Positions 3,086 through 54,443 of a stretch of DNA of 64,000 bases are shown here, one piece after another. The notes below the pieces were generated by a model. It was not told where the DNA came from, did not search any database, and saw nothing but the letters and a program-made list of their open reading frames with translations. The translations under genes and the position numbers were made by a program. Numbering within the stretch: the stretch's first letter is position 1; the number at the start of each line of letters is the position of its first letter. Origin of the DNA: Chiloscyllium plagiosum (Eukaryota); the NCBI RefSeq assembly GCF_004010195.1, contig NC_057724.1, positions 41,086,819 through 41,150,818 on the forward strand, read 5' to 3'.

Positions 3086-3191
3086 GGTCTAGATTAGAGT
3101 GGTGCTGGAAAAGCAGAGCAGGTCAGGCAGCATCCGAGGAGCAGAAAAATGGACGTTTCGGGCAAAAGCCCTTCATCAGGAATGAGGAATG
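3086..3191 (-). mobile_element. Penelope terminal mini-insert carrying a hammerhead
   Basis: Perfect 14-bp TSD ttggggttgttcag (3072-3085, 3192-3205); reverse complement of 3855-3948. Confidence 0.85.
3152..3179 (-). ncRNA. Minimal hammerhead ribozyme motif, core intact (Penelope terminus, family 1)
   Basis: CTGATGA-A-GGGC-TTTT-GCCC-GAAA-CGTC. Confidence 0.75.
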
Positions 3192-3431
3192 TTGGGGTTG
3201 TTCAGTCAATTTGATTTGTTGGTTGCCATGAGAATCTTAATACAAGTCAAATTACATTGACTGGAACTTACTTGGTGGTTGGTCTTTTGGATTTAGATGT
3301 CTAACATTTAGATTTTATTGTCACGTGTACTTAAGTACAGGAGTTCAGTAAAACATGTCTAATGTCACCACACACGGCACCATCTTAAGGATAGGAGGAT
3401 GGGTTGTAGTGGGGCGTGAACCTGACCAGGT

Positions 3432-3948
3432 TGTCCCATCCTGGCACCTTCCCCTGCCACCGCAGGAATTGCGAAATCTGCATCCAGACCTCCTCCCTCA
3501 CCTCCATCCAAGGCCCTAAAGGAGCCGTCCACATCCATCAAAGTTTTACCTGCACATCCACCAATATCATTTATTGTATCTGTTGCTCCCGATGCGGTCT
3601 CCTCTACACTGGGGAGACCGGACGCCTCCTAGCAGAGCGCTTTAGGGAACATCTCCGGGACACCCGCACCAATCAACCACACCGCTCTGTGGCCCAACAT
3701 TTCAACTCCCCCTCCCACTCTGCCGAGGACATGAAGGTCCTGGATCTCCTTCACCATCCCCCTCCCCCACTCACCTATTGTACTCTATGCTACTTTCTCC
3801 CCACCCCCACCCTCCTCTAGTTTATCTCTCCACCCTTCAGGCTCTCTGCCTTTATTCCTGATGAAGGGCTTTTGCCCGAAATGTGGATTTTACTGCTCCT
3901 CGGATGCTGCCTGTACTGCTGTGCTCTTCCAGCACCACTAATCCAGAA
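3432..3948 (+). mobile_element. Penelope-like element, 5'-truncated (GIY-YIG endonuclease + 3' terminus)
   Basis: FTCTSTNIIYCICCSRCGLLYTGETGRLLAERFREH...VAQHFN is a GIY-YIG motif with upstream CxxxxCxxC. Confidence 0.9.
3858..3885 (+). ncRNA. Hammerhead motif with mutated stem III/cleavage site (family 1)
   Basis: CTGATGA-A-GGGC-TTTT-GCCC-GAAA-TGTG (consensus CGTC). Confidence 0.6.
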
Positions 3949-5545
3949 TTATTCCTACCCTGTTAGCTCAAAATTGCTTTGATTTATCTGCATGTGTCTT
4001 CCATTATTTCTGAATGGGAGTTGAGCTCACAGCTAACGTTTAACGATCACATATTGAACAGGTGAATAGCTCTCGGATAATATGCCGACAAATTAGCATA
4101 AACTATTCACTGATCTTGTGTTTATTTGTAAAGTCACTTCTGTCTTAATGTATTGTGAGGTAGACTTTCACAGAGGTTATAAGACAGGCTGAACTTTTAA
4201 GTCAGCCCATGCTGATTTTCAAACATAATCAGTTCACTCTGATTTATTTGGCTCACACTGACCCATACCTTAAATGAGCACATACTAACTTATTTCTTTA
4301 ATCAGCATACAAAGACTCACTATCTTAATTAGGCCACATTTCTCTTCAAATCAACTCTCTTGATTAGTCAACATTGTCAATGATGCTTTAATCAACCCAC
4401 ACTGACCTTTCTCCTTTAGACTATGTTGCAACAATTTTCACCAGGCATCATCCAATAGTCAAACATTCAGGTAAGATGATATGCTTTTTATACACAATAT
4501 GGAAAAAAAGGATGTTGTGAATTCAAATGGAAATATCTATGTTATGTGCCAATCAATAATTCTTGAATAACTGCATTTTCACACAGGATAAGTATTGATG
4601 TATAGGTGCTTTTTCACAGACATTATGGTCTGAATTTCCTGTATCCAACATACTCTTATTTCTACTCTAATCTCATCGACAGAAATGCAAGCAATTTGTT
4701 GAGAAACTCAAACATAAAAAGTCCAAATATAAAAACTATTATAAAGCAAATGGAAACAATTAAAGCCATTGAGACCAGAAGAGAGCACAGATACCAGACA
4801 ATACATAATGGTGACTGTTAGGTTTTAAACTTCAGCCCTAAATCCATGACCAAGTTGAAAATGGATTTTTCTGCTCTGTGCATGAGGGAGGAGCAATGTT
4901 AATAAGGAAACAGTGTATTGGTAATGTCACTGGTCTACGTGACTTGGAGGTGCTGGTGTTGGACTGGGGTGGACAAAGTTAAAAATGACACAACATCAGG
5001 CAAGAAAATAGTCTACTAATTATCACCTACCACCCAGCCATACCAAGGCCACTCAGCTTCTGACCTCATTACAGCCAGGTTCAAACATGGACAAAAAACT
5101 GAACTCCAGAGGTGAAGTGGGAGCAACTGCATTTGACAGGATGAGGTATAAAGGAGTCCTAGGAAAACTAGCGACTATAGGAATTAGGGGAATATTCTCT
5201 GATTTCTAAAATCATGCCCAGCACAAAGGAAGATATTTGACCTTACTGGAAATTTATCACCTCAGTCACAAGATGTCATCGCAGGAGATCTTCAGGGTAG
5301 GTATTTTCTAATCAACCTATTCAGAGATGTTATTGCACATCTCGGGAGCAGGTGAGATGTGAACCCAAGCCTCTTGGTTCAGAGGTAGGGACAAGAGTCC
5401 TTTTCCTCAAGGTAGTGCCTTGCACCCTATTATTATCCTGTGCATTAGCATTGACAAGAAGTGAAAGTAAAACAGCCATATAAATACTGTGGATAGAACA
5501 GCAGGTCAGAATCAATGAATTGCATACTTAGTAACTCGCATCATG

Positions 5546-5869
5546 GGGCGGCACGGTGGCACAGTGGTTAGCACTGCTGCCTCACAGCGCCAGAGACCCG
5601 GGTTCAATTCCCGCCTCAGGCGACTGACTGTGTGGAGTTTGCACGTCCTCCCCGTGTCTGCGTGGGTTTCCTTCGGGTGCTCCGGTTTCCTCCCACATCA
5701 CAAAGATGTGCAGGGTCAGGTGAATTGGCCATACTAAATTGCCCGTAGTGCTAGGTAAGGGGTAAATGTAGGGGTATGGGTGGGTTTCGCTTCGGCGGGT
5801 CGGTGTGGACTTGTTGGGCCGAAGGGCCTGTTTCCACACTGTAATCTAATCTAATCTAATCTAATCTAA
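5546..5869 (+). mobile_element. HE1-type tRNA-derived V-SINE, full length, young
   Basis: A box tggcacagtgg, B box ggttcaattcc, V-domain tgtgtggagtttgcac...gggtgctccggtttcctcccaca, (TAATC)n tail. Confidence 0.92.
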
Positions 5870-6226
5870 TGTCTCTCCAATGTCTCCTCTGGATGAATAT
5901 GTGAATAGGAAGGGAATAAAGGGATACAGATCCTGTAAATAAAGACAGTTTTAGTATAGAAGGGCAAAACGTGTCAGCGCAGGCTTGGAAGACTGAAGGG
6001 CCCATTCCTGTGCTGCACTGTTCTTTGTTTGTCCACCATCTATAATTTATAATTCAGGAATGTCAATGAATACAGTGCACTTGCTTCAATGCTTGCAAAT
6101 TCAACAACTTTCAAGAAGCCTGAAACCATCCAGTCAACAAGGTGCTTGAATGACACCTCATCCATCACTTTCAACATTCGATCCCTTTAACAATAATGCA
6201 AAGTGGTTGCAGTATGGACCATCAAT

Positions 6227-6778: not shown

Positions 6779-9494
6779 TGCACAAGATGCACTATAATAA
6801 CTCATCAAGGCTCCTATGACAGCATCTTCCAAATCCACCACCGTGACCATCTAGAGGATTAAAGACAACAGATGCATTGGTAGACCATTACGTTCATGTT
6901 CCCCTCCAAACCATGCAGCATCCTGACTTGTAACTATGTCATTGCTTCTTCAGTGTCACAGGGTCAGAATCCTGAAACTCTCTCCCTCACAGCACACCCC
7001 ATGGGTTGCAGTGCTCCAGGAAAGTAGCTCACCAACACCTACTCATGAAGAGTTAGAGATGATCAATTAATGATGGTCCAGCCATCACTCTCAAAGAATC
7101 TTTTAAAAATCACATTGATGAGAAATATGAGGTAGTTGCAACTTAAGAATGACACAAACAAATGAATGAATGCATAATGATAATTTAGTGAGTACATCAG
7201 ACATTTTAACATTAACATTTATCTCTACAATAATATTTTCCACACATTAAATGCCCGTTACAAGTTTTATTTTTTAAATAATGGCTTTGTGTGAGGAACC
7301 AAAGCTCTGACTCTGTGCAGTTCCAGATCGATCTGATTAAGTATTTAGCTTCCAGCTTCCAACATATACTTTATAATTTCCACAAATGTTTTTAATATAT
7401 ACACATTTAAAGCTATACATTGCTTTCTATGTTCCACTCATTCATTCATTCATTCTGATACATCATAGAAAACTACTGAGGCTGAAAATCTCAGGACATT
7501 TCGAAGTGCAATATTTATGTATCATGATCCACATGAAAAAAAGAAAAATAAGCTTTTATTTTTATTTACTTTTAATACACAAAATAATTGATAAAAAGTC
7601 TTACAAGAATAATACTGTTATTCATGTTTGGAGGAAGCTTCTGAATAAAAGTCCTGAATTTAAAGCAAATTATCAAAAGATTTGTTTAAACACTTGGTGC
7701 AATATTTGCTAAACAAGGAAAAGAATAGCTAAGATGGAAATAAAAGAACGTGCTAGAAAAAATCAGCAGCTGTGCCAGAATGAGACATAGTTAATGTCAA
7801 AGACCATCTTCACAACTGAAAGAAGAAAGAAATGTAATCGGGTTTTCTGCAACTGGAAAGTGGGAGGTGAAGAATTACAAGGAAGGTCTTTGATAGGGAG
7901 GAGAAGAGTTTAAATGATAAATAGTCATGATACAAATGGGAACAGTAATGTTGTAGGAAAGAAAGAAATAATTTGTCCAAATGCAGTCCAAAATGCAGAA
8001 TAATGATTTGCTACTTCTGAAAGCAAAACTCTGTAAAACAAAATTAAAACTTGGTACATGAATAACAAAATAAATAAAATTAGAGATAAAGTTAACATGT
8101 TTGAAATGGTTGAATTTGATGTTGAGACCAGAAGGCTGTGAAGGGTCTAACTGAGAGATGAGGTCCTGTTCCTCGACCTTCATTGAGTTTCATTTAATTA
8201 TTGTGGCTGGCTGAGAGCAAAGATGTCAGCATGAGAACTTGGCAGAGAGTTAGAACAGCGGGAAATCACATGCTCTGGGTCCTGCTTGTGGACTGAGTTG
8301 AGCTGTTGACCTCTTTTACTAAAATGAAGCTCTGAGCTCTCCTGGAATCCAGCTTCTCCAAAATGATTTGTAGCTTGTTACCCATTTTCACTTTTGTTGG
8401 ACTATCAGGCTACTTATCTGACATCCTGTACAGGATGAGCAAAAACTCCCTTCAATTAAATACCAGGAAGGTGGATGCCATTATGTTCTATCTCTGCTTC
8501 ACTCTACTCCCAGGGCACCAACCCCACCCCTCTCCCAGTATGTTAAGAAGCTTGGTATTACATTTGACCTCAAGGTGGGCTTACAATCTCATACTCATGG
8601 CATCACTAAGACTACCAGCTCACACCCCCATCTGGCAGCTTAATATAAAATAAAGGGTACACAGCACAAACATCTGGTGCTGTCATGTTGAAGATGGTAA
8701 AAATGGTGGTGAATGATTCATTGACTGCAGCAGCTAGTGGGGTAATGATTAAGGATGAGGAGAAGCCTATTGTGGTTCTGGGAGGCAGGGGAAGGAGTGA
8801 CAGCAGGATGGTGGATGCAGATCCTTCGTTGAAGTAAAAGGAATCGCTATTGGGAAGGGCTGTATCATTACAACATATGCAACAGAAACAGTGAAACTGG
8901 AAGAATGGAATTTTATGCTAAGCAGTGGGCTATGAGTGCATCAATAGGAAAATATAGTAAAAATAAGAATAGGCACAATTAGGGATCAAAAAGAGAGTTT
9001 ACACAGAGACAAAAGGCATTGTGAAGTATTAAACGAATACTTGCCATCTGTTTTTCCCTGAAAGCAGACTTTACCTTGGCCAATCCTGACACAGAAGAAG
9101 ATGCAGTCACTAGAATGGTGTAAAATGGATAAGGAGGATGTACTGGAAAGGGTATCAGTACTTTTAAGTTGCTAAGGAATTGGGATCAGATGAGATGCAC
9201 CCAAGGATATTGAAGGAAATAAGCGTAGAAATTGCAGAGGCATTGACAATCTTGTAATCATTCCTGGATTTGGGGATTGTGTCAGAGGACTGGAGTATTG
9301 CAAACATTATGCCCTTATTCAAAAAGGGTTGTAAACATCAGTCCAGCAATTACAAAAACTAGTCAGTTTAATTTTACTCTTGTGGTAGTGGTTGTGGAGG
9401 TGCATGACAATTATTTGGAATGAAATTAATAGTCACATGACAAAATGTGAATTAATTCAGAAGAATTAGCATGGATTTTCTAAGGGAAAATCAT

Positions 9495-10391
9495 TACACC
9501 TCTTCCTACCTTACCTCCTGCAAAAATGCCAGCCCGTATTCCCAATTCGTCCACCTCTGCCGTATCTGCTCCCAGGAGGACCAGTTCCACCACAGAACAC
9601 GCCAGATGGCCTCCTTCTTTAGAGATCGCAATTTCCCTTCCCACGTGGTTAAAGATGCCCTCCAATGCATCTCGTCCACTTCCCGCACCTCCGCCCTCAG
9701 ACCCCACCCCTCCAACCGTAACAAGGACAGAACGCCCCTCGTGCTCACCTTCCACCCTACCAACTTTCACATAAACCAAATCATCCGCCAACATTTCTGC
9801 CACTTCCACACGGAACTCACCACCAGGGATATATTTCCCTCCCCATCCCTTTCTGTCTTCCGCAAAGACCATTCCCTCCGTGACTACCTGGTCAGGTCCA
9901 CGCCCCCCTACAACCCATCCTCCCACCTGGCACCTTCCCCTGCCACCGCAGGAATTGCAAAACCTGCGCCCACACCTCCTCCCTCACCTCCATCCAAGGC
10001 CCTAAAGGAGCCTTCCACATCCATCAAAGTTTTGCCTGCACATCCACCAATATCATTTATTGTATCCGTTGCTCCCGATGCGGTCTCCTCTACACTGGGG
10101 AGACCGGATGCCTCCTAGCAGAGACCTTTAGGGAACATCTCTGGAACACCCGCACCAATCAACCACACCGCCCTGTGGCCCAACATTTCAACTACCTTCA
10201 TCGCCTCCCCCACTCATCTATTGTACTCTATGCTACTTTCTCCCCACTCCCACCCTCCTCTCACTTATCTCTCCACCCTTCAGGCTCTCTGCCTTTATTC
10301 CTGATGAGGGGCTTTTGCTCGAAACGTCGATTTTACTGCTCCTCGGATGCTGCCTGAATTGCTGTGCTCTTCCTGCACCACTAATCCAGAA
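9495..10391 (+). mobile_element. Penelope-like element, 5'-truncated (RT thumb, linker, GIY-YIG, terminus)
   Basis: YTSS...CKNA.PYSQF..L.RICS, PLVLTFHP; perfect 14-bp TSD taagggaaaatcat (9481-9494, 10392-10405). Confidence 0.92.
10301..10328 (+). ncRNA. Minimal hammerhead motif, core intact (family 1)
   Basis: CTGATGA-G-GGGC-TTTT-GCTC-GAAA-CGTC, one G-U wobble in stem II. Confidence 0.75.
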
Positions 10392-11100
10392 TAAGGGAAA
10401 ATCATGTCTAACTAACTTATTGGAATTGTTTTGGAAAGGTAACAGAGCGGGTTGCTGAGGGAAGGCTATTGATGTGGTATACATGGACCTTTAAGACATT
10501 TACATTTCTGAGGAAAGGTATAGGTCATTAAAAAAAATAGAGGAGTTGGACTGTTTTCCCTAGAGAGGAGAAGGCTACGAGGAGACTTGATAGAAGTTTT
10601 CAAAACCAGGAGAGATCTGAACAGAGTAAATAGAATGAAATTGTTCCCACTTGTAAAAGGATCAAGAACCAGAGGGCACAATTTTAAAGTGTTTTGCAAA
10701 ATCAACAAATGAGAAGGCAGAACAAATACTTTTTCATACAGGATGGAGGAATGCACTAACTGCAACTCTGGTGGAGGTAGGTTCAACTGAAGCATCCAAG
10801 AGGTGTTATTTAAACAGAAACAGTGTTATGGAGAAAAGGCAGGCGATTTGTACCAGGTTAAAATGCAGATAGAGCTAATGCAGGTATGATGGACTGAATG
10901 GCCTCCTTCGGCACCATAAGTATTCTGTGATTGCCCAATTCTATCCTTCCCAGCTCATCTGCTGCTGGTACCCTCATTCGTGCCTTCATTACCTCTACAC
11001 TTGACTACTCCATGCGTTCCTTGCTGATGTCCCACATTCTACCCAAACCCAAGGACAACAAACACTTGATCATGTCATACATAATGTCATATACCACAGA

Positions 11101-11375
11101 TGTGGCACAGTGGCTCAGTGGTTAGCACTATTGCTCATAGTGCCAGGGACCCAGTTTCGATTCCAGCCTCAAGAGTGACTGTCTTTGTGAGTTTGTACGT
11201 TCTCCCTGTGTCTGCACGTGTTTGCTCTGAGTGCTCTACTTTTCTCCCACAGTCCAAACATGTACACGTTTGGTGGGTTAGCCATAGTAAAAACACCATG
11301 CAGGGTTATGGAGATGGAGTGAGTCTGAGTGTGACGCTCTTCAGAGGAATGTTGCAGACATGTTGGGCTGAATGG
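11101..11375 (+). mobile_element. HE1-type SINE, diverged
   Basis: gtggctcagtggttagcact head and V-domain similarity to 5546-5869. Confidence 0.8.
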
Positions 11376-11384
11376 CAACTTTCA

Positions 11385-12063
11385 TAGGTGACTCAGTGGT
11401 TAGCATTGCTGTCTCGCGGCACCAAGGTCCCAGGTTCAATACCACTCTCAGGTGACTGTTTGTGTGGAGTTTGCACATGCTCCCTGTGTCTGCATGAGTT
11501 TCTTTCGGATGCTCTAGTTTCCTCCCCAGTCCAAAGATATGCAGGTTAGGAGGAATGGCTAAGCTAAATGGGCGGCACGGTAGCACAGTGGTTAGCACTG
11601 CTGCCTCACAGCGCCAGAGACCCGGGTTCAATTCCCACCTCATGGGACTGACTGTCTGGAGATTGCACATTCTCCCCGTGTCTGCGTGGGTTTCCTCCGG
11701 GTGCTCCGGTTTCCTCCCACAGTCCAAAAATGTGCAGGTCAGGTGAATTGGCCATGCTAAATTGCCCGTAGTGTTAGGTGCAGGGGTAAATGTAGGGGAA
11801 TGGGTCTGGGTGGGTTGCGCTTCGGCGTGTCAGTGTGGACTTGTTGGGCCGAAGGGCCTGTTTCCACACTGTAAAGTAATCTAATCTAATCTAATCTAAA
11901 TTGCCCACAATTTCCAGGAATGTGCATTAGCCATGGGAAATGCAGGGTTACAGGGATAAGGTAGGGGTCTAGGTCTGGGTGGGGTGCTCTTCGAAGAGTT
12001 GGTGTGGACTAGATAGATCAAATGGCCTGCTTCCTTACTGTAGGGATTCTATGATCTATGATT
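11385..12063 (+). mobile_element. HE1-type SINE interrupted by a younger HE1 copy
   Basis: Body runs to gctaaat (11569) and resumes tgccc at 11902, ending in tagggattctatgatctatga. Confidence 0.8.
11570..11895 (+). mobile_element. HE1-type SINE, full length, young, nested
   Basis: Close match to 5546-5869, (TAATC)n tail, ctaaat duplicated on both sides. Confidence 0.92.
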
Positions 12064-12829
12064 ATTGTGTTTCATTCACCCATCACCCACTGTTTAGTAC
12101 AAAATAAAGGAAACTATTCTAAAGGGTGTGAAGCAGAGACCCATCCATGTATATATACAGAAGTCATTAAAGGTGGCAGGATAGGTTGAGAGAGCTGTTA
12201 ATAAAGCATACAGCATTTTAGGCTTCACTAATAGAGATGAAGAGCAGCAATGCTATAATGAACTTATATGAGACTCTGGTTAGACTTCAGTTGGAGCATA
12301 ATGCACAGTTCTTGGCATTGCTGGTTCACACTGAATTTTGATTAAGTAAAATCTTGATTTAAAATTTTCATCCTTATTTTCAAATCCCTCTATAATCTCA
12401 CTCTTCCCTATATCTGGAATCTTGTCCATCCTCACAATCTTCTGAAATATGTGTCCCGCTAAATCTAGCCTCTCGGAATCTCTGATTTTAATTGCTCTAC
12501 CACAGGTGGTTATGCCTCCAGTTGTCCAGGCTCTAATCTCTGGAATATCTGCCATACACCTCTCTGCCACTCTATTTCACTTACTTCAAATTAAACACTC
12601 CTTATAACTTACCTCCTTGATCGCTGAATCCAATATCTCATATAAGGTTTAATGTTTTGTTTCGCACTGCAAAATTCTCCAGAGAAACATCTTTGGCATT
12701 ATATGACATCTGAAGATGTCATGTAAGTAGGGTGTTGCTTTATTATTTCAGGCCCAGAAATATGTTAGAACCAAATTATTTTCTGCATATCAGGTTCATA
12801 ACAATTTTAGTTTCAGGAGTATTACTTAG

Positions 12830-13277
12830 AGCCATGGAGTCATAGAGATGTACAGCATGGAAACAGATCCTTGGGTCCAACCTGTTCATGCCAACCAGAT
12901 ATCCCAACCCAATGTAGTCCCACCTGCCAGCACCCAGCCCATATCCCTCCAAACCCTTCCTATTCATATACCCATCCAAATGCCTCTTAAATGTTGCAAT
13001 TTTACCAGCCTCCACCACGTCCTCTGGCAGCTCATTCCATACTCGTACCACCCTCTGCGTGAAAAAGTTGCCCCTTAAATCTCTTTTATATCTTTCCCCT
13101 CTCACCCTAAACCTATGCCCTCTAGTTCTGGACTCCCTGACCTCAGGGAAAAGACTTTGTCTATTTACCCTATCCATGCCCCTCATAATCTTGCAAACCT
13201 CCATAAGGTCAACCCTCAGTCTCCGACGCTCCAGGGAAAACAGCCCCAGCCTGTTCAGCCTCTCCCTATAGCTCAAA
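12830..13277 (-). mobile_element. CR1 (HER1-like) 3' end
   Basis: LSYRERLNRLGLFSLERRRLR.DL.EV.KIMRG...NFFTQRVVRVWNELP; (CTATGA)-type tail. Confidence 0.92.
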
Positions 13278-14499
13278 TTATAGCAAATAATTTCAAGGAT
13301 GGAGGGAAAATCTACTACAGGTCTATCTAAAAACAAGAACTGTACAAGCTTTAATACTGACTAAAGTGTATTAACTGTAAGGGTGAAAGCAGATCAGCAA
13401 ATTTCATACTGGATATGAAATAATATTGCCTTGAATTACTAAACCCTGAAATGGAGTGACATGTATCAAGAAATCAAAAATAAACACTACTAAGCTATGA
13501 ATCAGTCACGAACAAGGCATGCCGACCAACCTGAAGGAAGCAACCAATACAGTGTGCATGTGAAGATCATCAAGTGCAGACACACAGGATATATTGAATA
13601 AACAATTACAAGTTCTGGTCTGCTGGCACTTAATGTCCTGGTCCAATAGAAAGAAGATGTCTGAACATTTGCCAGATCTTACGTGATCATTACTATCATC
13701 AACTAACCAAGACTTGAAGACTCTAGGCTGTAGTTGTGTTACTTCTTCAGTCATTACATTAGTTTCTAAATAAAGATAATCTGTGTGCAAAATACCATGT
13801 CCATGCATTTCTGGTGAGAGAGCTCCCGATCTACAAAGCCCACTCTAGCATCCTAAATGGAAAGTGTCTAAAGTACATGGTAACTATAAACATAACACTG
13901 AACAGACTAGCACAACAACAGTTGTTATTACATTATGCATCAACCTATTGCTTATAATTAATTGTTAGTTCCTTGGATAATTGCAATTTTAGAATATAAT
14001 TAGCATTAATTAAAAATGATCACTGCAATTTTGTCATTACATATATATTCAATAAAAAAAATGTTTTGACCTCCACACAGTACATCCAGATTGATAGACC
14101 TGGTAGGGCATATAGTTTAAGGTATTAATAATGGAAAGATAAATGTTACAAGACAAATAGCATTGCGCTGTAATGAACTCTCCTTCATATAAATTACATG
14201 ACACCTTTAGAACCAAAAGCTTCCAGCTGAGACCCTACTTGTGGTTTTTCTTCCACCGGACCCAAACTACAATATAGCGATGTAATGGGGCCAAAATGTT
14301 GTGGCTCTTTGTTCATCTACTGTTATTTTTGTTGGTTCATGAGCATTGGAAGTATTGGCAATAACAGGCATTTAGGATACCATTGCAACTTCTGTGCAGC
14401 AGCTACCACGAACAGCAGTGCAATAACATTCATCTTTGCATTATGGGCATATCCAGCTGGGACAAAGTCACAAATATGGCAGCGCTCTCAGAGGCATAG

Positions 14500-29580: not shown

Positions 29581-29923
29581 TTACACATATGTCCTAACCA
29601 TTCTCCTGGTGGAAGTATAGAGCATTTTTCATGTAAATGGGATGGGGCAGCTACGCATGAGTTCAGGGAGAAAGTTTCAGAGAAGGCACTAACGCCTCAA
29701 GTATCAGTCACCAATGAAGGAAAATTCCATGGGGAGAAGGGATGGAGTCAGGGATGTGGCCCATGGAAGAGCAGAGACTAAGGAGCAATGGGTGGACAGT
29801 AAGGTTTGGGTGTAGAAGCAGGAAAGAAGGAAGCTGTGAAGTAATCTGGAAAAAGAGGACTGTTAAAGACAGGACAGGTAAGTGGGGGGGTTTCAGGTAG
29901 AATCGGGTATAGGTGGCAGATAT

Positions 29924-30228
29924 TGGTTAGCGCTGCTGCCTCACAGCACCAAAGACTCGGGTTCAATTCCCGCCTTGGGCAACTGTCTGTGTAGAGTTTG
30001 CACATTCTCCCATGTCTGTGTGGGTTTCCTCTGGGTGCTCCGGTTTCCTCCCACAGTCCAAAGATGTGCAGGTTAGGTGAATCGGCCGTGCTAAATTGCC
30101 CGTAGTGTTAGGTGAAGGGGTAAATGTAGGGGGATGGGTCTGGGTGGGTTGCTCTTCGGAGGGTCGGTGTGGACTTGTTGGGCTGAAGGGCCTGTTTCCA
30201 CGCTGTAAGTAATCTAATCTAATCTAAA
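29924..30228 (+). mobile_element. HE1-type SINE lacking the first ~20 nt
   Basis: B box, V-domain and (TAATC)n tail. Confidence 0.9.
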
Positions 30229-33077: not shown

Positions 33078-33137
33078 CTCCTTTTCTACATATTTTCTTG
33101 TTGGGTTTTCTTGTGCATTCCTTCGATATTCTTTTTA
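33078..33137 (-). CDS. NLGN3: Neuroligin-3 splice-site A1 cassette exon (60 nt, VKRISKECTRKPNKKICRKG)
   Basis: Not in the ORF track. Minus strand reads ttttattcattttacag|TAAAAAGAATATCGAAGGAATGCACAAGAAAACCCAACAAGAAAATATGTAGAAAAGGAG|gtaggt. Phase 1-1, in frame with the upstream exon. Matches the mammalian NLGN3 A1 insert (VKRISKECARKPNKKICRKG, recalled) with one substitution. Confidence 0.93.
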
Positions 33138-33224
33138 CTGTAAAATGAATAAAATACTGCAAAATAACATGAGGCTCCATCAGACAAAATAGGAGCATGC
33201 AATCACAACCATTTCACTTCCCCT

Positions 33225-36080: not shown

Positions 36081-36429
36081 TAAGTTAAGGCATGGACTTT
36101 GTGAGGAAGTTCATGCACATTTCCCATATTTATCTAAATCCCATCTTCTTATAGAATTCCCTGCTAAAATCTATGTTAGTTGCTTCTAGATATTTAGTAA
36201 TTTTATTTTTAAACATTTAAATTTTTCTGTACAACAGATAAATTACAATTACTTGAATTACCATGTTCTTTCTTGCAAATGTATATTACATTGTACTCTT
36301 TACGTTCTCTGACACCCTCAATTGCTCCAGCTTCCCTTCATGATTCTTTGGTCGCATCACATCCTGTTCTCCTTTAGCTCTACCAACTCCTACATCCTAC
36401 ATTACATTTGTAATCTACTCCAAATTAAA

Positions 36430-37349
36430 ATTAAAAATCACACAACACCAGGTTATAGTCCAACAGGTTTATTTGGAAGCACAAGCTTTCTAAGCGCTGC
36501 TCCTTCATCAGGTGGTTGTGGAGTATAATATCGTAAGACACTGAATTTATAGCAAAAGTTTACAGCATGATGCAACTGAAATTATTTATTGAAGAAGACC
36601 TGGATTGTTTGTTAAGTCTCTCATCTTTTAGAATGACCACGTTGGTTTCAGTTCTTTCTTATGTCAATCCCAGAGCTTTTTTTTAAAAGTTACATTCTCA
36701 AGTGAACTTTAACAATAGGTGGTTGTCAGCTCAGAAAATGCATTGAAGGTGTGAGAGGCCCTGTGTGAGGCTGTCTGTGCCCCAATGTTCACACTGATTC
36801 TATTTCTAAAAAAGAGACTTACAGAATCGTACATGGCTTTATGCAGTTTGTGAGCAAAATAAAATATAACTCTGCAAGTATAAATTCACCCCACAAACGT
36901 GTGTGTGTGAGAATGTGGGTGTGGGGTGGGGGGGGTATGAGTGTGAGAGTGTGTGTATGTGTATGTGTGTGATTGTAAGTGTAATCAGGTATAAGTCTGT
37001 GAGAGGGTGTGTGTGTGGGTGTTGAGTGTGGATGTGTATGTGTGAGCATACGAGAGAGAGCTTGTATACAAGTCAGGGTCTGCTTGAGTGTATGGGTCTG
37101 AAGGAGTGAAAAAAACATGGTCATTCTAAAAGAGACACTTAACAAACAATCCAGGTCTTTTCTCAATATATGATTTCAGTTGCATCACACTGTAAACTTT
37201 TGCTATAAATTCTGTGTTTTATGATCTTATACTTAGGAGCAGCGCTCTGAAAGCTAGTGCTTCCAAATAAACCTGTTGGACTCTAACCTGGTGTTGGGTG
37301 ATTTTTAACTTTCTACACCCCAGTCCAACACCAGCACCTTCAAATCATG
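36430..37349. mobile_element. Penelope-like (family 2) insert with ~200-bp inverted termini and an internal (GT)n tract
   Basis: 36431-36643 is reverse-complementary to 37114-37308; TSD actccaaattaaa (36417-36429) / actccaaatcaaa (37350-37362). Confidence 0.8.
36483..36511 (-). ncRNA. Minimal hammerhead motif (family 2), stem II base damaged
   Basis: cac-CTGATGA-A-GGAGC-AGC-GCTTA-GAAA-GCTT-gtg; stem I cac/gtg; the partner copy near 37235-37259 reads GGAGC-AGC-GCTCT-GAAA-GCTA-gtg but lacks CTGATGA. Confidence 0.65.
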
Positions 37350-38028: not shown

Positions 38029-38056
38029 CTGATGAAAGGCTTACGTCCGAAATATC
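38029..38056 (+). ncRNA. Hammerhead motif, diverged (family 1 variant) within a ~100 bp Penelope terminal fragment (to ~38120)
   Basis: CTGATGA-A-AGGC-TTAC-GTCC-GAAA-TATC. Confidence 0.55.
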
Positions 38057-39753
38057 GATTCTCCTGCTCCTTGGAATGTGCCTGTCTTGCTGTGCTTTTC
38101 CAGTACCACACTTTTTGACTTCATCTACCCCTGGTCTAGCCTATTTAAAGCAACCATGACGAGCAATCTGCATGAGAATCAATTTTCTTGCAAATGTGGA
38201 CTTCATTCTTTGACACTTTGCTAAACTCTGCCCTTAGCAACAGCTTTCAACGTGAAACAAACTTCCCAGCTTGTGTTTATTAAGTAAATAATGCTTCGAA
38301 TAATTGCCTCATCTCATTAACTTGAATATGAGTCTAGCCCAGTTTCTGCACTGGATATAAAATTATTTCTATTTGTGACATTTTGAATTTCAGTGGAAAA
38401 AATGTCTACAGTACAAATTTAGGCATTTTAACGTGTAAACCAACTCAGAGACGATAAGGATGAATTATATGAGAAATTGAAATGTTACACAGGCCACTCG
38501 AAGTGGTCTGAACCTAACGACACATAATAGTAACTCTGAAATGTTCTTAAAACTTCACAAAATTATTATGGCGCAGAAGGCAACCATTCAGCTACTGTGT
38601 CTGCATTGGCTCTCTAAGCATTTTAATTTAATGTCAATCTCTTGCCTTTTCTCATAAGCCTGCACATTTTTTCTATTTAAATAATCGTCCAATATTCTCC
38701 TGAATGTCTTAATTGAACTTCCAGAGAGTGCATTTCAGATTCTAACTGCTCACTGTGTGAACTTAGTCCACCTTTTCTTACATTTTCCCCAGTGCTGATA
38801 TTATTCACATTGATGAATCAAATTATTAATGAAATAAAGCAAGCATAGTCCACTGTGAAACCCCTGTATCATTGACTAGCACAATTATTTACATAGCAAT
38901 CAATGTTCACAACCATTTTTGAGGAACTAGCCCCTGCCCTGACAAGTATCATGAGAGTCGCTCTCTGACATGAGGTCTCAGTAAAAGATGAGGTTAAACT
39001 CAGCAGTTTTAATCATTTTTGATGCAAATATAGACAAGTTCATGCCTAATATTAACAAATGTATTACACTGTATGAATGACTGGCACGAGCATGAGGATA
39101 ACTTGCACTGATATGTAGGCTTTTTCTTTTACCAATTCATGGATAGTTGATAGTGACCCATGGACAATCTACAGTGATTGATGATAATCTGTATGAGTCT
39201 TGCAAAGTTGGTTCAGGGTCTTTGCGGATGAACAATATGCTCTCTTCATATTCTGAGTTCTAAGAAGTGAACTAAATCATAAATAAACACCAAACTGCAA
39301 ACTAATCCTCTGGATTTGAGAGTGATTTTGCAGCAGACATTCAGTCACAACCCATGTATGTCCTGGGAGAATATTTCTGCAATCACCCTTCACAAACTTT
39401 CCAAACCACTTGTCCCCTCACACATTACTGTGTGAATCCCAAACCCTGCGAATTAATCGTGTGGTCAATGCACCTGTCTTGAGACTTTTTGCAGTGATGA
39501 TTCGCTTTTGGTTGTCAAACTGTGCCAAAGAAACAAAAGAGGAACCATAACAGTGCCATAGACAGTAAGAGATATAAAGGTCAAAGTAAGGAGAAGCCAC
39601 AACATGAGCTACATAACAATTGCATGCAGGAGGGGGATGGGATGGGGTCAGGTGCGAAATAGGAAACCATCTCATGCTTAAAAAGCAACATACAGACAAA
39701 ACAGGAACAAAGAACCAGACAAAGAAGCATTGGCTCATCCGCTACTGACTCAC

Positions 39754-40246
39754 CATCCTCTGTAGGAACATAGATGTTTAGATACAAACAGTCTTCATTT
39801 TGATCCTGGATGTAGGTTGCAACTATATCCAAATTGGCCGTGAACCAGATTGGTAACATGATTTCTGGTACTATACCATGAATGTTTTGCGGACAGACAG
39901 GAGCAAAATGAGTTACGTTACGTATTCTAGACCAAGAGGGTGGAGGTTCTGGTGGTTGGAACCTTTTCTCTCCAGTAGGAGCACTTGCATATGGAACTCC
40001 CAGGTACTGATCCACTGGCCCAAGTATGTCACTTGGCAAGGGAATTCGGATTCCCCGTAGTTTTCCATAATGTGTATTCACAGTTGGGTAATTGATCTGA
40101 CCCTCCAGCACTATGACCCTGACAGCAAAGCTGAATATCCAGAGAGCAGCACTACAGTCTACATTGAAGAAAATGGTGACTATGCGATATAAAAAGGATA
40201 CAGGACAACTCCATCTTGTATGAAGAAACATCGTACACGATGCCAT
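39754..40246 (-). CDS. NLGN3: Neuroligin-3, first coding exon (signal peptide + start of cholinesterase-like domain), 493 nt, phase-1 donor
   Basis: Translation ...[71 protein letters not shown]...[31 protein letters not shown] matches neuroligins; [19 protein letters not shown] and [13 protein letters not shown] are NLGN3-type. ATG at 40246 has strong context (ataATGG). Donor GAG GAT G|GTGAGT at 39753 is the conserved neuroligin junction before splice site A. The track ORF's TTG start and its tail after PTED are artefacts. Confidence 0.93.
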
Positions 40247-43113: not shown

Positions 43114-43445
43114 GGGAGAAAGTGAGATCTGCAGATGATGGTGATTAGAATCAAAAAGGGTGTGGTGCTGGAAAAGCACAGCCAGTCAGGCAGCATCCGA
43201 GCAGTAGCAGAATCAACGTTTCAAGCTTAAGCTCTTCATCAGGAATGAGGGGGTGGGGCTGGGAGGAAGGTAGCAATAGGGAGACAAAGTAGGAGGTGAA
43301 GGTAATAAGTCGGAGTGGAGGGTGGAGCGGATAGGTGGGAAGGAAGATGGACAGGTAGCACAGGTCAAGAGGGCAGTACCGATTTGGAAGGTTGGATCTG
43401 GGATAAGGTGGAGGAAGAGGAAATGCGGAAACTGGTTCACCACTT
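43114..43445 (-). mobile_element. Penelope 3' terminal fragment
   Basis: Similar to 54357-54700 and 1471-1582; contains a hammerhead. Confidence 0.85.
43215..43242 (-). ncRNA. Minimal hammerhead motif, core intact (family 1 variant)
   Basis: CTGATGA-A-GAGC-TTAA-GCTT-GAAA-CGTT; stem II differs from other copies but still pairs. Confidence 0.7.
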
Positions 43446-44830: not shown

Positions 44831-46409
44831 AAGGCGAGGTGGTGGTGTAATGGTAATATAATTGGACTAGAAATCGAGGCTCATGATCTTGGAACATGGG
44901 TTTAGAATCCCACCATGGCAAACAGTGGGATTTGACTTCAATAAAATCTGTGGTAATCTATTAGTGATCAATTGTCAATTCTTGTGAAAACACATTTGGT
45001 TCACTTACGTGCTTTAGAGAAGAAAATCTTCAATGTTTACCTTGTTTGACCTACATGTGACTCCAGACCCACAGCAATGCAGTTGGTTCAGAACTACCTT
45101 TTGAAATGGCCAGGAGGTCACTCAATTGCATTACTACAATATCTGAAGAAAGAAATGAAACTGTATAGATCACCTGAAATTGAACAAGATACTGGAAATG
45201 CGGCAATAGCAAACCTATCCAAACTGACCTCACAAAGTCCTCCCAATGAAATCTGGTAGCTTTTGCCAAAATTGGGAGAGCTGTCCCGTAGACTAGTCAA
45301 GAAACAGCCTGACACAGTCAAACCAAAAAATGATTCTGAACATCACAATCCTTGAGTATGTCCTATGACAGGACAGACCAATGAGAGGTGATGGTGGCAC
45401 AGTGATTTACAGCTGGAAGGGAGTCACCCTGGAAATTCTCAACCTTCACTCCAGACCGAGCATCAGGTCAAACAATGGACAAGGAAACCAAGGCAATCAC
45501 AAGTAACCTTTACTGACTAAGCTTATCTGTCCTGAAAGACATAGCTACTAACAGGGTCTGTGACAGGTGTAAGGGAACCCAGAATGAAATACTTACATAA
45601 TCTCATTCTCACTAATGTACCTATCACATGTACATCCATCGATGACAGTTGGAGTGGTTGGAGTGAATACCTTACATTCCTTGTGGAGGTGAAACCCAGC
45701 ATTTATCTTAAGGATATGCTGTCTCTTGATCGCCATGATAAATGGAACAGACTTCAACCAGATCTCACAACTCTAAACTGGGCATCCATGAGACATTGTG
45801 GACCATCAGAAGCAGCAGAATTGTATTCATCTAAAATCTTCAAAGTCCTGGTGCCACACTCCACTATTCCCATCAAGCCAGGGAAATAACCTTGGTTAAA
45901 AAAAAAAGTGCAGGAGGGCATGCCAGGAATAGCATTAAGCATGTCTAAAACTGAGGTGTGAACCTACAACACAAGACTACTTGCATGCCAAACAGCAGAA
46001 GCAGATGCAATATACAGGATTAACCAATCTCCCAACCAACAGATTATATCTAAGATTTGCAGTGCTACCACATACCGCCATGAATGGTGGCAGACAATTA
46101 CACAACTAACCTGAGAATGAAGTTCCGCATATTTTCCCACCCTCAATAATAGGGGAGACCAGCACATTAGTGCAAAAGATAAGGCCAAAGTATTTTCATC
46201 CAACTTCAGCCAGAAGTGCCAAATAGGTGATCCTCCTCCTCTGAGGTCCTCAGCATCACAGATGCCAACTTTATCCAAATTAATTCATGCCATATCATAT
46301 CAAAAAATGGCTGAAGACACTGGATACCACAAAGACTGTGGTGTCTGATGATATTTCAACAATAAGGGAAAACACTCCAGTGGTTACAGTCATACTTAGT
46401 ACAAAGGAA

Positions 46410-46583
46410 ACTAGAAAAGCACAGCAGGTCAGGCAGCATCCAAGCAGCATGAGAATCAAGGTTTCGGGCATAAGCCCTTCAGCAGGAATGAAATGTCAAC
46501 TCTCCTGCTCCCTGGATGCTGCCTGACTTGCTGTGCTTTTCCGGCACCAGGGTGATCTCCAGCATCTGCAGTCCTCACTTTCT
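46410..46583. mobile_element. Penelope terminal mini-insert, head-to-head inverted, mutated hammerhead (46485-46458)
   Basis: 46413-46455 pairs with 46500-46542; TSD cttagtacaaaggaa (46395-46409) / cttagcacaaaggaa (46584-46598). Confidence 0.85.
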
Positions 46584-47336: not shown

Positions 47337-48671
47337 CTTTGTAGGAGGTCCTCAGTGTAGTATCCCAGGCACAACCTTTTTCAGCTAATTTCAAATGACA
47401 TTCTCTCCATCACAAAGGTCAGAAGTGGGGATGTTCACTTATGATTGCACAATGTTCAGCCCCATTAGTGACTCCTCAAATGCTGTGTCAGTATGCAGCA
47501 AGACGTGGACAATATTCCTGTTTGTACTGCTAAGTTGCAAGTAAGATTTGTGCCACACAAATATCAGACAATGACTCTCTCCAACAATGCCAATACCCCT
47601 TCACCTTCATTGGCACAATCATCACTGAATCCCTCATTATCAACCTCCTGGGAGTTACCAATGACTAGAAACTGGACAAGCTATATCCATACTAGCATTA
47701 TGAGAATAGGACGCAGTCTAAGAGTTCTGCAGAGAGTAATTCCTGTCTCCCAATGCCTGTCCACCATCAACAATCACAAGTATGACGCAATATTCTCCAC
47801 TTGCTGGGATGAATGCAGCTTTCAAGAAATTCAACACTATTCAAAGCAAAACAGCCCACTGGACTGGCATCCCATCAATAACCTTCAGCATTCACACACT
47901 TCCATACTCTTACAGTGTGACAGCATTGTATACCATCTTAAAGATGCATTGCGGTTTCTCACCAAGGTTCCTCTGACGGCACCTTCCAAACTGTGACCTT
48001 TATTACTTAAAAGCCAAGGAGAGCTGTTATATTGAAATAAATTCCCCTCCAAGCCCCTCACCATCTTGACTTGGAACTGTATTGCTTGTTCCTTCACTGT
48101 GGCCAGATCATATCCTTGCAAAATGCAACTTTATAGCACTATGTGTGTACCTACCCCTAAAGACAACAACAGTTCAAGACAGCAGCTCACCACATTCTCC
48201 AGGGCAGTTATGGATGAGCAATAAATGTTGGCCTGATTACACATTCCATAGGCAATTTAAATTTACAATAAATTTCAAAAATAGGGTTAAAAATCTGACT
48301 GAACAATAGGAGAAACATAAGCTCACTAATATGATATCAGGTTAAGAAAATGCAGTGAATCAAGTATCCCAAGGCTCTTAGCTCAAATCAGATTCAGAAT
48401 AAAATTCACAAAATGGTCAAATGTGGATAACAAATAGAATCAAAAGAGACAATTTGGAAATTACAGAATATGATAAGTATGTTAAGCAAGAAGTTTGAAT
48501 ACTCGTGAATGGAATGGAATGCAACTGTGAAGTACTCTACATAAAAAAAAATAGGCAACTCACACATTTCATAAATAATGTTGAAACAGTTTGGAATGAA
48601 GCTGAGAGATACTTTGGAATAGGAGCCTTAAGAGTAGATAGGACAGTGAGTTTTAAGAAGATTTGAGGTTC

Positions 48672-48895
48672 TGGATGTAGATTTGCTCACTGAACTTGAA
48701 GGTTCATTTTCAGGCGTTTCATCATCATCCTACTAGGGAACATCTTCAGTGAGCCTCCAGATGAAGCCTAAACACAAATAGAAAGCGGGCTACACCACCA
48801 GTGTTTCATCTGGAGGCTCACGGATAACGTTACCTAGTATGGTGACAAAACGTCTGAAAACGAACCTTCCAACTCAGTGAGCAAACCTAAATCCA
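48672..48895. mobile_element. Penelope-like (family 3) inverted terminal pair, ~95-bp arms, each with a decayed hammerhead
   Basis: 48672-48766 is reverse-complementary to 48804-48895; combined consensus tca-CTGAAGA-T-GTTACC-TAGTAT-GGTGAC-GAAA-CGTC-tga. Confidence 0.7.
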
Positions 48896-49484
48896 TAGGT
48901 AGGATAGAGTTTGATCATGTGTTATAGTATAAAAGTGGGTGATGGCAAAGCAGCAGCCCATTTTAAATCCCAGTCAATGTTTATTTTGCTTGAAGTCACT
49001 GGAAATGAAAACTGGGAGAGATGTAAAATGGGATGCTAGTTTACCAGCACCTACTTGACACCATCACAGAGACCAGATCAGTTTCAATATGTTTAACTCA
49101 TGTATAGCAGTAATCACAAAAATAAAAAGATATTGAAATACAAAGCAAAAATAGTAGAATACAACTTATAGGAGGTAATGATTAAACTGTAGCATTCTGA
49201 ATAGATCAAATAGAACATCATTTTTGCACTTTGAAGAAATAACAGGTTCATTCAAACCCTGGAGGCAGTGCAGCCATAAAGAAAGCCTGAGTAGACGAGG
49301 GATGAAAATTTCCTCAGAACAGCTTCTGCTTCACTGCCACAACTTCATCAGAAACCCGGTGGAAGCTTCATCAACATTTTCAGAGAAGTGGGACAGCAGA
49401 AGCTCTGATGAAATACCCAGTAAAGATTTTGCAAATGAAGTGTGTACGGGAGCAATCCGATGGCAATAAATGATCTTTTTAAGA

Positions 49485-51899: not shown

Positions 51900-52100
51900 C
51901 AAAAAACTGCACTTGCAGGAAATCTGAAACAAAAACAGAGGATTGGAGAAACTCAGTAGGTCTAGCAGCATCTGTAGAGAATAAACCAGAGTTAATGTTT
52001 CAAGGCCTGTGATCCTTCATCAGACATCATTCATCATTCATTTTTTGCACTTGCTGCTAGACCTGCTGTGTTTTTCCAGCAATCTCTGGGTTTTGTTTCA
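51900..52100. mobile_element. Penelope-like (family 4) terminal fragment with short inverted arms
   Basis: 51924-51968 pairs with 52053-52100; hammerhead remnant between them. Confidence 0.55.
51994..52023 (-). ncRNA. Decayed hammerhead motif (family 4)
   Basis: CTGATGA-AGGATCACAGGCCTT-GAAA-CATT; stem II imperfect. Confidence 0.45.
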
Positions 52101-52166
52101 AAGAAACATGTAAAAGTCAACTTGAAGACTGATGTCAGGAGGCCTTCTTAACAAGTAATGATCAAG

Positions 52167-52458
52167 ATGGGTGGCAAAGTGGCTCAGTGGTTAGCACTGC
52201 TGCCTCACAGCGCCAGGAACCTGGGTTCAATTCCGGACTCAGGTGACTGTGGAGTTTGCACATTCTCCCTCAGTCCAAAGATGTGCAGGTTAGGTGAACT
52301 GGCCATGCTAAATTGCCCATAGTTTTCAGGGATGTGTAGTTTAGGTGCGTTTGTCAGGGGAAATGTAGGGGAAAAGCTCTAAATGGGATACTCTTTGGAA
52401 GATTGGTGTGGACTTATTGGGCCAAATGGCCCTTTTCCACACTGTAGGGATTCTATGT
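52167..52458 (+). mobile_element. HE1-type SINE with internal deletion
   Basis: A and B boxes, truncated V-domain, gtagggattctatg tail. Confidence 0.85.
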
Positions 52459-53954
52459 AGAATAAACCTCCAGCTACTGCACTGGAGGAAATTATTTCAG
52501 GAATGTGCTGAAACATTCTTGAAAATATTTCAAAAATATTCCTGCACTTTAGAATATTCCTGCATCATATACTTAGGTGCAATCTTCTAAACACCACCAG
52601 AAAAATCAAGCACTGGTCATCTTAAAGACAAGAGGTGGAATCTTGTGCCAGCAACAGGGATTCTCACCTATCACCTGTAGAGTTAGAGAAAGCCCTTTGT
52701 AATCTCATTTTAGGAAGGCCCACCATGTCAATGGTGTAGGTTTCTCTTGGATCAAGGACCACAGGGCAGGTATCCAGCCTAGCATGGAAACAAAGATTAC
52801 TGCCAGTATGAAGTTCACCCAATACCTGAGGATCATCACTGGGTAACAAGGTAAAAATGTCTGAAGGTGGCATGGAAGGGTTAGATAGATCAGGCTGGTG
52901 AGAAAATGGGGTCAGCACTAAGGTGTAAGTATTGTCCTCCTCCCTTGAATGAGTGAGGATCACATCACCAAATCCCCACCTTGCCCAAGGAGGCCATAAG
53001 CAACTCTATATGACTGTGCACCTTTCATTATGAGCACTCCCCAACTCATCATTACCTTGCAGTCATTAGTCTATACTTGCTGTTTCTCCTATTCACTTAT
53101 ACTCAGCACAGCATCTGAAACCTTGTTACCATCTGTCTCCATAAGGTCTACAGGTAGAATCTGAATGTTACTACCTAGTTGGGCAAGTGTGTAAAATGGC
53201 ACATATGAGGTGATTGGTTAGATAATTAATGATACATAGCTCATTTTCAACTCTTCAGGTTAAAAAGGGCATTAACAGTCAAAAATCCAGCTTGATTTGG
53301 CTCCACTCAACTCCACGACATGTTTCCGGAAATTGCACATTTTTCTGAGACATGGGAGAAAGAATCTGTGGAGCATAGAACACAAATTTGAAATGGGAGT
53401 CTTTCTTTTTCATTTGTAAAAGATAGAGAAAGTTGTCATACAGTTTTCTGTCCTTCAAAACCCATTTAAACCCCTCAAAACACATCTTAAATACCATAAA
53501 ACTATATTTAAACACCTTCAAGCTCCAGGCCCCTCAACCCCTTTATCCTGCCTTCATCGCTGCACTCCTTTCAATTGTTTTAAGCTCCTCTTTCCCCTTT
53601 CTATCCGCTTACCCCTTTAATCATCTCCATTCAACTCACCCCACCCCCCTGCTAACTCGGTCACTAACTACCTGCTATAAACACAACTCACAAATCTATA
53701 AAAACATCTGAAAATCTTTGACAAGCTCATGCAATCTGTGAAAATGAACAAACAGCACTTTATAGCTACTAAAAAATCCTCTTCAGACATTCATAGATCT
53801 GCCAAAGTAAACGAGCTGTCATTCTGCTAAATACCTGTGCAATAAAACTCTGTTGAGCAGAATCAGTTAGAGATTCTGAAGACAAACAAAAACATTAAAA
53901 TGGTCAAACAGATAGCTGTGTTAAACTTTAGGGAACCTATATTTTTCTAATCAA

Positions 53955-54047
53955 CCTGTTCAGAGATGTATTACACACCTCTGGAGCAGATGGGACTCGA
54001 ACCAGTGTCTCCTGGTCCAGGGGACACTACCACTGCATCACAAGAGG
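53955..54047 (-). mobile_element. Short tRNA-derived SINE-like element (related copy at ~5320-5398)
   Basis: Minus strand gtgatgcagtggtag (A box) and ggttcgagtcc (B box); no complete cloverleaf. Confidence 0.55.
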
Positions 54048-54415
54048 GACTCGAGGAAACAATGAAAGAATTCAGAACATTTTGCACAATCAGACCTGAT
54101 TTCAGATTGTACAAATTTGAAAGGTTCATACAATGCAGAATAGCACTTTATCCAGGAGACAATCTGCTCTAAAGTATCTGAAAACCTTTCTACTTTTACA
54201 ATGGTTTTCTTTCCCTTGACAGTTTGCCAGTTGTCAGCTATAAAAGTCCAGCCCTCACATTCCTTAATAGTCATATACTTTGTTAAAATTATCATTGACT
54301 GTATAAAGGTTATATTATGACATTTCATAACAACCAGTGGACAAGCCTTTTATACTGGACTAGTGGTGCTGGAAGAGCACAGCAGTTCAGGCAGCATCCA
54401 AGGAGCTTCGAAATC

Positions 54416-54443
54416 GACGTTTCGGGCAAAAGCCCTTCATCAG
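54416..54443 (-). ncRNA. Minimal hammerhead motif, core intact (family 1), at the 3' end of a young Penelope copy
   Basis: CTGATGA-A-GGGC-TTTT-GCCC-GAAA-CGTC. Confidence 0.8.

Follow-up and report, generated by a model that had tools for sequence, protein, structure and literature searches.

Minimal hammerhead ribozymes (min-HHRs) are known from the pseudo-long terminal repeats (pLTRs) of Penelope-like elements (PLEs), where they share a common core with a bulged base between positions 9 and 10.1, a G10.1–C11.1 pair, a palindromic 15.2–16.2 pair and no loop 3, and occur mostly as solo dispersed copies together with opposite-strand pairs (Cervera and de la Pena 2014, PMC4209133). The monomers were inactive in vitro. 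In PAc, a Poseidon element of the lizard Anolis carolinensis, cleavage of the ribozyme needed the element protein, C3G/G8C rescue was shown, cleavage was dispensable for insertion in vitro, and the target was cut at 5′-ATT-3′ (PMC11167929). Endonuclease-bearing (EN+) PLEs, Neptune as well as Penelope/Poseidon, form insertion units with 5′ truncation, an inverted 5′-truncated partner and a 30–40-bp tail, and possess a C-terminal GIY-YIG endonuclease with a CX2-5CXXC linker in the Neptune-type families (PMC8557442, PMC3846280). Here we describe motifs of this kind in a stretch of 64,000 nucleotides of the shark Chiloscyllium plagiosum (contig NC_057724.1, positions 41,086,819 to 41,150,818), hereafter the window. 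The shark motifs share the published min-HHR features, and their insertions have the same architecture as those of EN+ PLEs.

An initial annotation of the window listed twelve hammerhead motifs assigned to four Penelope families, and all twelve were found at the positions and on the strands given there when both strands were read. These motifs are very probably minimal hammerheads of type I, carried by four PLE families in their terminal repeats, and the copies are mostly short, decayed and likely inert passengers. The motif class has been known since 2014, and the structural features pointed out earlier are the published signature, not new ones; the find adds a shark to the list, with an unusually large load. 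Most of the interest lies not in the motifs themselves but in the record of the 5′ ends of the copies, which points to a cap and a start site. This map of 5′ ends is an in vivo test, from genome sequence alone, of the role of a PLE hammerhead, and predicts an exact transcription start.

The motif of family 1 resembles the Acropora Neptune motif and that of family 3 the Clonorchis motif (PMC4209133 Fig. S3). Contrarily, the commonest shark family has merely 2 bp of helix I beside the core, unlike the min-HHRs of PMC4209133. The extra base, likened earlier to that of the viroid CChMVd, is present, but the viroid precedent is unneeded because this base belongs to the published PLE consensus (PMC4209133). 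The suggestion that the shark versions are unannotated holds only in a narrow sense. No hammerhead model matched the window in an Rfam scan at E up to 10, which gave only two weak chance hits, and no chondrichthyan appears in the parts of Table S1 and Fig. S3 of PMC4209133 that were covered; however, hammerhead retrozymes and PLEs are reported from the single chondrichthyan sampled in a 2026 preprint (bioRxiv 10.64898/2026.07.22.740005). The type I hammerheads of those animal non-LTR retrozymes are related to the PLE pLTRs. Their units are tandem, each with a ribozyme, whereas the window holds solo and inverted copies only. No report of shark PLE hammerheads was found in the literature, although subscription papers, Repbase/Dfam and supplements may hold one.

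The abundance of the motif was estimated in an unbiased sample of the 3.56-Gb assembly (80 segments of 10 kb, spaced at fixed offsets along the 26 largest contigs and totalling 768,676 called bases). A descriptor of the minimal hammerhead gave 82 hits in the sample, compared with 2 in the reversed sequence and 0–4 in five Markov controls. With a second, tighter descriptor, the same sample gave 76 hits and its reversed sequence none; helix III is palindromic in 50 of the 76, and 22 also have at least three helix I pairs. Scaled up to the genome, taking the sample as typical, these counts correspond to about 3.4 × 10^5, 2.2 × 10^5 and 1 × 10^5 motifs, respectively, a load of roughly one intact-looking motif per 10 kb. 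About 4,000 motifs in coelacanth and 9,000 in Xenopus were reported with a different descriptor (PMC4209133), compared with about 3 × 10^5 in the shark. Searches of the whole genome gave 15,996 matches to the exact 30-mer of family 1, and 4,194, 667 and 358 matches to the patterns of families 2, 3 and 4, respectively, each with 0 in the reversed control.

The window contains six descriptor hits, whereas the controls averaged 0.06. One of them, at 43725, looks like chance, as would be expected if the motifs were chance matches or a descriptor artefact. This explanation can be dismissed with near certainty, since the 82 hits stand against 0–4 in the controls and the motif was also recovered upstream of the element tails by tail-anchored searches that were blind to it; the pattern counts agree.

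The assignment of the motifs to Penelope-like families was borne out, as all four families are linked to a PLE reverse transcriptase (RT) and a GIY-YIG endonuclease (EN). The motif of every family sits downstream of the GIY-YIG/RT frame, and at the start of the open reading frame (ORF) in 5′-complete copies. The clades were assigned by the CX2-5CXXC linker as described in PMC8557442, although Nematis has the same linker. By this sequence criterion, families 1, 2 and 4 are Neptune-type and family 3 is Poseidon-type: the linker is present in family 1, decayed but recognizable in families 2 and 4, and absent in family 3, the endonuclease of which is Poseidon-like. Three 5′-truncated bodies of family 1 lie in the window and contain, across them, the RT, a CX4CXXC linker and the GIY-YIG domain. 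PF01541 (GIY-YIG) matched at 3410–3817, and RT and EN are collinear by tblastn; no RT family of Pfam matched in the two family 1 RT pieces tried. Collinear upstream RT (26–30% identity to family 1) was found in 3 of the 30 family 2 loci identified by their endonuclease region, with L322 and L330 at 28–30%, and collinear RT and EN (37–53% to family 1) in 4 of the 30 family 4 loci. The window copy at 52023 was placed in family 4 by its tail.

The ORF-bearing family 1 copy L248 has the motif at its very start, followed by an open frame. Another family 1 locus, L171, was rejected as a full-length element, its 5′ part being an inverted fragment; in its ORF, the N-terminal domain and the RT are separated by a long low-complexity stretch rich in Thr, Ser and Pro, beside which many copies have assembly gaps. 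Twelve loci chosen for long open frames consisted mostly of assembly gaps. In family 3, an N-terminal probe placed the motif at the ORF start in at least 13 of 30 loci, and among the matches listed the frame opens, in 10 of the 13 motif-bearing loci, with an ATG to which A9, the bulged U and G10.1 contribute one base each. The ORF of PAc likewise starts at stem II: 28 nt separate the A of the family 3 AUG from C17, and PAc is cut 26 bp after the start codon. Unlike PAc, families 1, 2 and 4 are Neptune-type, and the first in-frame AUG of family 1 lies well downstream of the ribozyme (L248); the shark side of this comparison is read from sequence alone. A fifth family, sister to family 3 (L035, L045, L070, L081, L209 and L238), also has the bulged U within the frame-opening AUG, and a mismatch in stem II.

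Each of families 1–3 has two fixed 3′ ends 35–40 nt apart, which correspond to the PLE tail. Two 3′ ends also define the tail of PAc, where the tail was equated with two internal start sites of reverse transcription and uncut RNA is the main template (PMC11167929). Searching by the tail alone gave 215 family 1 hits, of which 199 have a mappable gap-free junction; 112 extend past C3, and 96 of these were kept as gap-free. About half of the 199 copies (110) are arms of fold-back pairs. A chimeric insertion was also observed at L252:882-1230, in which a family 1 3′ tail is followed by an inverted tail and the ORF-bearing 5′ end of another subfamily.

Structural tallies were made on 88 descriptor hits. 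As claimed earlier, an extra base lies between A9 and G10.1, in 83 of the 88 hits; it is A in families 1, 2 and 4 and U in families 3 and 5. The palindromic, loopless stem III was upheld as well: positions 15.2 and 16.2 are palindromic in 57 of the 88, and 22 carry the CpG-decay product (CA/TG). Among the 96 gap-free family 1 copies, for which pairs were counted by script, the closing pair 10.1–11.1 is G-C in 81 and G-T in 9; it is broken in the window copies at 38029 and 36511. Helix I consists of 3 bp in families 2, 3 and 5, of 4 bp in family 4 and one family 1 subfamily, and of 2 bp, a U-U and 1 bp in the commonest family 1 subfamilies.

The stems had been described as covarying, which is the case between families. 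The 2.1–1.1 pair is C-G, C-G, A-U and U-A and the 2.2–1.2 pair U-A, A-U, C-G and U-A in families 1–4, respectively, and the 15.2–16.2 pair is C-G or G-C. This is a structural comparison, because the families can be aligned only within the core. Within family 1, however, there is only one double change, G-C to A-U at 10.2–11.2 in 5 of the 96 copies (p = 4.5e-5), which represents a single ancestral event.

Constraint is seen in the distribution of the subfamily variants. When the columns of the 96 family 1 copies were classed by hand, non-CpG subfamily variants occurred in 0 of 26 constrained and 8 of 28 free columns (p = 0.0045), the latter being located at N7, in loop 2, at the outer helix I pairs and in the flank. 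The core is thus conserved beyond the flanking bases at the family level. Contrarily, single copies decay everywhere, including the core and the stems, chiefly at CpG, with loss at G12, 15.2 and 16.2. That the subfamily variants spare the core and the stems while the inserted copies decay indicates selection on the master elements, not on the inserted copies. It counts against the covariation that non-structural subfamily links score above the 10.2–11.2 pair, which comes 12th among 561 column pairs.

The 5′ ends were mapped over 1.31 Mb, with the copies anchored on their tails and extended against long natural copies. In family 1, 105 of the 199 copies start at −36 to −22 from the cut site, which is 8 nt before to 6 nt after C3 (C3 = −28), at a density of 0.064 per base against a background of 0.0065 (about tenfold). 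No excess of family 1 starts was found at the cut site, where 6 of 199 lie within 2 nt, the background expectation. Among the 89 singles outside fold-back pairs, 34 start in the peak versus 2 at the cut site. Family 2 behaves similarly (25 of 49 in the peak, about 8–10 times background, versus 0 of 49 at the cut site). Since the copies start at the 5′ edge of the ribozyme and not at the cut site, they support uncut RNA as the template. Neither a clustering of the 5′ ends at the edge of the ribozyme nor an additional G at that place is described for the elements in the parts of PMC8557442 and PMC3846280 covered, and no report of 5′ ends or caps at PLE hammerheads was found in the literature, where subscription papers, Repbase/Dfam and supplements could contain some.

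The modal start is the A four bases before C3, within TCATTCC or TTATTCC (TCAGTTC in family 4). These sequences conform to the initiator consensus YYANWYY. For the fly Penelope, an internal promoter that contains an initiator is reported (PMC2377424), and for a rotifer pLTR an initiator-like motif (PMC3846280). The base preceding the start should also be noted. In the first 100 of 5,394 young family 1 copies that have a purine before ATTCC, it is G in 74, compared with 38–40 expected. The effect is weaker in family 4 (G before AGTT in 41 of 70, p 0.003–0.01), where element-like DNA is lacking upstream in 18 of 20 G loci. Such an extra G marks the reverse-transcribed cap in full-length L1 and SVA copies (PMC2912911). 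The excess G at the junction is likely a copied cap, and the copies were likely copied from capped, uncut RNA.

The same pile-up may instead come from the chemistry of integration, either by annealing of (G)ATT target ends to ATTCC or by fall-off of the RT past the ribozyme, and the template may have been a cut and re-ligated circle; this explanation is quite possible, though we lean against it. It accords with the cleavage of the PAc target at 5′-ATT-3′ (PMC11167929), with the breadth of the peak, and with the target duplications, which end in G, GA, GAT or GATT in 8 of the 16 non-fold-back loci with R before ATTCC (two of these are one duplicated locus). However, family 2 peaks at CAC and family 4 at AGTT, not at ATT, and in about 7 of 22 G junctions, judged by eye, the G matches neither the partner nor the target. 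A stalled polymerase would be expected to leave ends on the 3′ side of stem II, where there is no excess. Moreover, the A four bases before C3 is also where the ORF-bearing copy L248 starts, and contigs from another run connect back there as well.

Several observations weigh against capped, uncut RNA as the template. If the RNA were cut and then re-ligated into a circle, the cut site would keep no mark of it. The interval of the peak was picked after a first look at the 5′ ends; the 110 fold-back arms are not independent, and 3–4 of the 34 singles have repeat-like upstream DNA. Family 3 shows no peak at the 5′ edge (1 of 18 copies). In 30 loci, the junction G is often where the target duplication or the inverted partner ends, and in a small unbiased set of copies starting at exactly −32 there is no excess of G (6 G, 7 A and 1 T). 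An untemplated G at every junction is accordingly rejected, as many Gs belong to the target duplication or the partner.

With these points on both sides, we tentatively propose, at a little short of even confidence, that Neptune-type elements are transcribed into capped RNA from the first base of helix I onwards, that the short copies, tens of thousands in number, arose by complete reverse transcription of this capped, uncut 5′ end, and that the cut RNA is not the template. The ribozyme would then serve as a decapping switch, gated by protein, which takes off a capped leader of 32 nt, together with the start codon in the Poseidon type, as a feedback brake on the element. In our main reading, transcription of a master element likely begins at the first base of helix I, the element protein probably starts reverse transcription inside the tail, as it does in vitro for the lizard Poseidon element, and the capped, uncut RNA would be copied to its 5′ end. 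Such tail-primed copying would give many short copies consisting of the ribozyme plus the tail. The ribozyme likely cuts only when two copies pair via the 4-bp palindrome or when the element protein holds it. Such cleavage is predicted to take away the cap, and in family 3 the AUG as well, so that the ribozyme likely regulates or processes the RNA of the element itself, not host RNA.

The folding energies support the inertness of the copies. The monomer at 54443 has a predicted hammerhead fold of −5.2 kcal/mol compared with −11.4 kcal/mol for its free fold, and a 4-bp helix III is worth about −2 kcal/mol. In L205, a same-strand tandem of two intact family 3 motifs 387 nt apart was observed; in this natural dimer the hammerhead fold lies 14 kcal/mol above the free fold. 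The window has no same-strand tandem, the nearest near-intact same-strand copies being 11 kb apart, and thus no near-intact same-strand pair close enough for a cis dimer. Its three fold-back pairs form long hairpins. In the sample, 14 of the 76 hits of the tighter descriptor have a same-strand partner within 1 kb.

It is improbable, in our estimate, that catalysis has been lost in these families and that the motif survives for its use as a promoter, as a start codon or in protein binding. The motif does coincide with the likely transcript start and with the AUG of family 3, helix I of the commonest family is just 2 bp and a U-U, PAc inserts in vitro without cleavage, and Naiads thrive without a hammerhead, the role of which in PLEs was called unclear (PMC8557442). 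However, in five families with differing but pairing stems every catalytic position is preserved and position 17 is C, A or U, as the NUH rule demands, and the PAc motif cleaves with its protein, as the C3G/G8C rescue attests (PMC11167929).

The core letters (CUGANGA, GAAA, U16.1 and H17) are satisfied by the families and by seven of the twelve window copies. Not all of the listed copies are hammerheads: the core is broken in five, and most copies are decayed. The family 3 motif described earlier is real elsewhere in the genome, as its 667 matches indicate, but is a composite present in neither window copy, both of which are dead. Only the copy at 54443 is letter-perfect; those at 10301 and 43242 are near-intact with a wobble pair in stem II, and those at 38029, 36511 and 52023 keep the core letters with a damaged stem II. 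The elements and motifs of the window, including two tails absent from the earlier list, are as follows.

1500..1579, minus strand: extra family 1 tail in which a remnant of the core's 3′ half persists; absent from the earlier list.
3152..3179, minus strand: solo family 1 min-HHR with a broken helix I (C in place of G1.1, the first pair being lost) beside an intact core and stem II; starts at the ribozyme 5′ edge, with a 16-nt candidate target-site duplication, on the sense strand of a neuroligin-3 intron.
3394..3949, plus strand: 5′-truncated Neptune-type PLE with a GIY-YIG remnant (PF01541), 3′ untranslated region, pLTR and tail.
3858..3885, plus strand: family 1 min-HHR, dead; G at position 17 and CpG decay at 15.2.
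4940–5000, minus strand: family 2 tail, ribozyme gone; absent from the earlier list.
9456..10394, plus strand: 5′-truncated Neptune-type PLE with RT thumb, CX4CXXC linker, GIY-YIG, pLTR and tail.
10301..10328, plus strand: family 1 min-HHR, near-intact, with a bulge G and one G-U in stem II.
36427..36656, minus strand: family 2 pLTR fragment; min-HHR at 36483–36511 with helix I cac/gtg and the closing pair 10.1–11.1 broken.
37101..37317, plus strand: family 2 pLTR fragment; core broken (motif 37235), the CTGATGA half being deleted and stem II + GAAAGCTA remaining (37235–37256).
38029..38056, plus strand: family 1 group min-HHR, stem II broken.
43161..43434, minus strand: copy of an older family 1 subfamily; min-HHR at 43215–43242 with A-U at 10.2–11.2, a G-U closing pair and U17.
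46405..46549, both strands: fold-back pair of family 1 pLTR tails; dead min-HHR at 46458–46485 in the minus arm (A6C and 16.2), the plus arm starting at GAAA.
48663..48898, both strands: fold-back pair of family 3 (Poseidon-type) pLTR tails; min-HHRs dead at 48713–48749 on the minus strand (U16.1C and a 3-nt insertion) and 48821–48854 on the plus strand (U4G, G8A and G12A).
51925..52100, both strands: tails of family 4 (older Neptune-type) arranged as a fold-back pair; on the minus strand, the min-HHR at 51994–52023 is decayed and truncated at C3.
54350..55539, minus strand: 5′-truncated Neptune-type PLE with RT (YIDD motif), endonuclease end, pLTR and tail; assembly gap at 54783–54899.
54416..54443, minus strand: letter-perfect family 1 min-HHR with helix I of 2 bp, U-U and 1 bp; cleavage is predicted after C17 (54416).
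33079–33138, minus strand: second coding exon of neuroligin-3, 60 nt.
39734..40246, minus strand: first coding exon of the host neuroligin-3, 99% identical to the Chiloscyllium punctatum protein and 87–92% to other elasmobranch neuroligin-3.

The neuroligin-3 gene lies on the minus strand and spans 214 kb, its remaining exons reaching up to 174 kb below the start of the window. Window positions 1–39733 are therefore intronic save the exon at 33079–33138, and nine motifs or fragments are located in neuroligin-3 introns. Several of these are on the sense strand, so that solo intronic copies might act as ribozymes that cut host pre-mRNA, such as that of neuroligin-3, in a regulatory role. Both strands of the motif are covered by RNA reads (1,171 and 1,209), at a depth about 50-fold that of the ORF start, and descriptor hits occur about once per 10 kb genome-wide. 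Nevertheless, we regard this role as very unlikely. The sense-strand intronic copies of the window are damaged (helix I in 3179, the closing pair in 36511), copies decay through the core and the stems with CpG loss at G12, 15.2 and 16.2, monomers were inactive in vitro (PMC4209133), and PAc required its protein (PMC11167929). There is also no strand deficit in neuroligin-3, where the tail copies are 14 sense and 14 antisense and the descriptor hits 5 and 8; the equal split means that no purge is visible, but one gene is a weak test with little power; the lack of sense-strand depletion is in line with inert copies. The reads show no pile-up of starts or ends, which is uninformative for cleavage in a fragmented poly(A) single-cell library, and a second RNA run had no reads over the motif.

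Other repeats accompany these elements in the window. Copies of a tRNA-derived short interspersed element (SINE), which we take to be HE1, lie at 5546–5857, 11189–12051, 29905–30221 and 52169–52455. Fragments of a long interspersed element (LINE), presumably CR1-like, lie at 57506–61171 (minus strand), 12776–13360, 28268–28715 and 30223–31580, with RVT_1 and Exo_endo_phos matched at 58572–60336.

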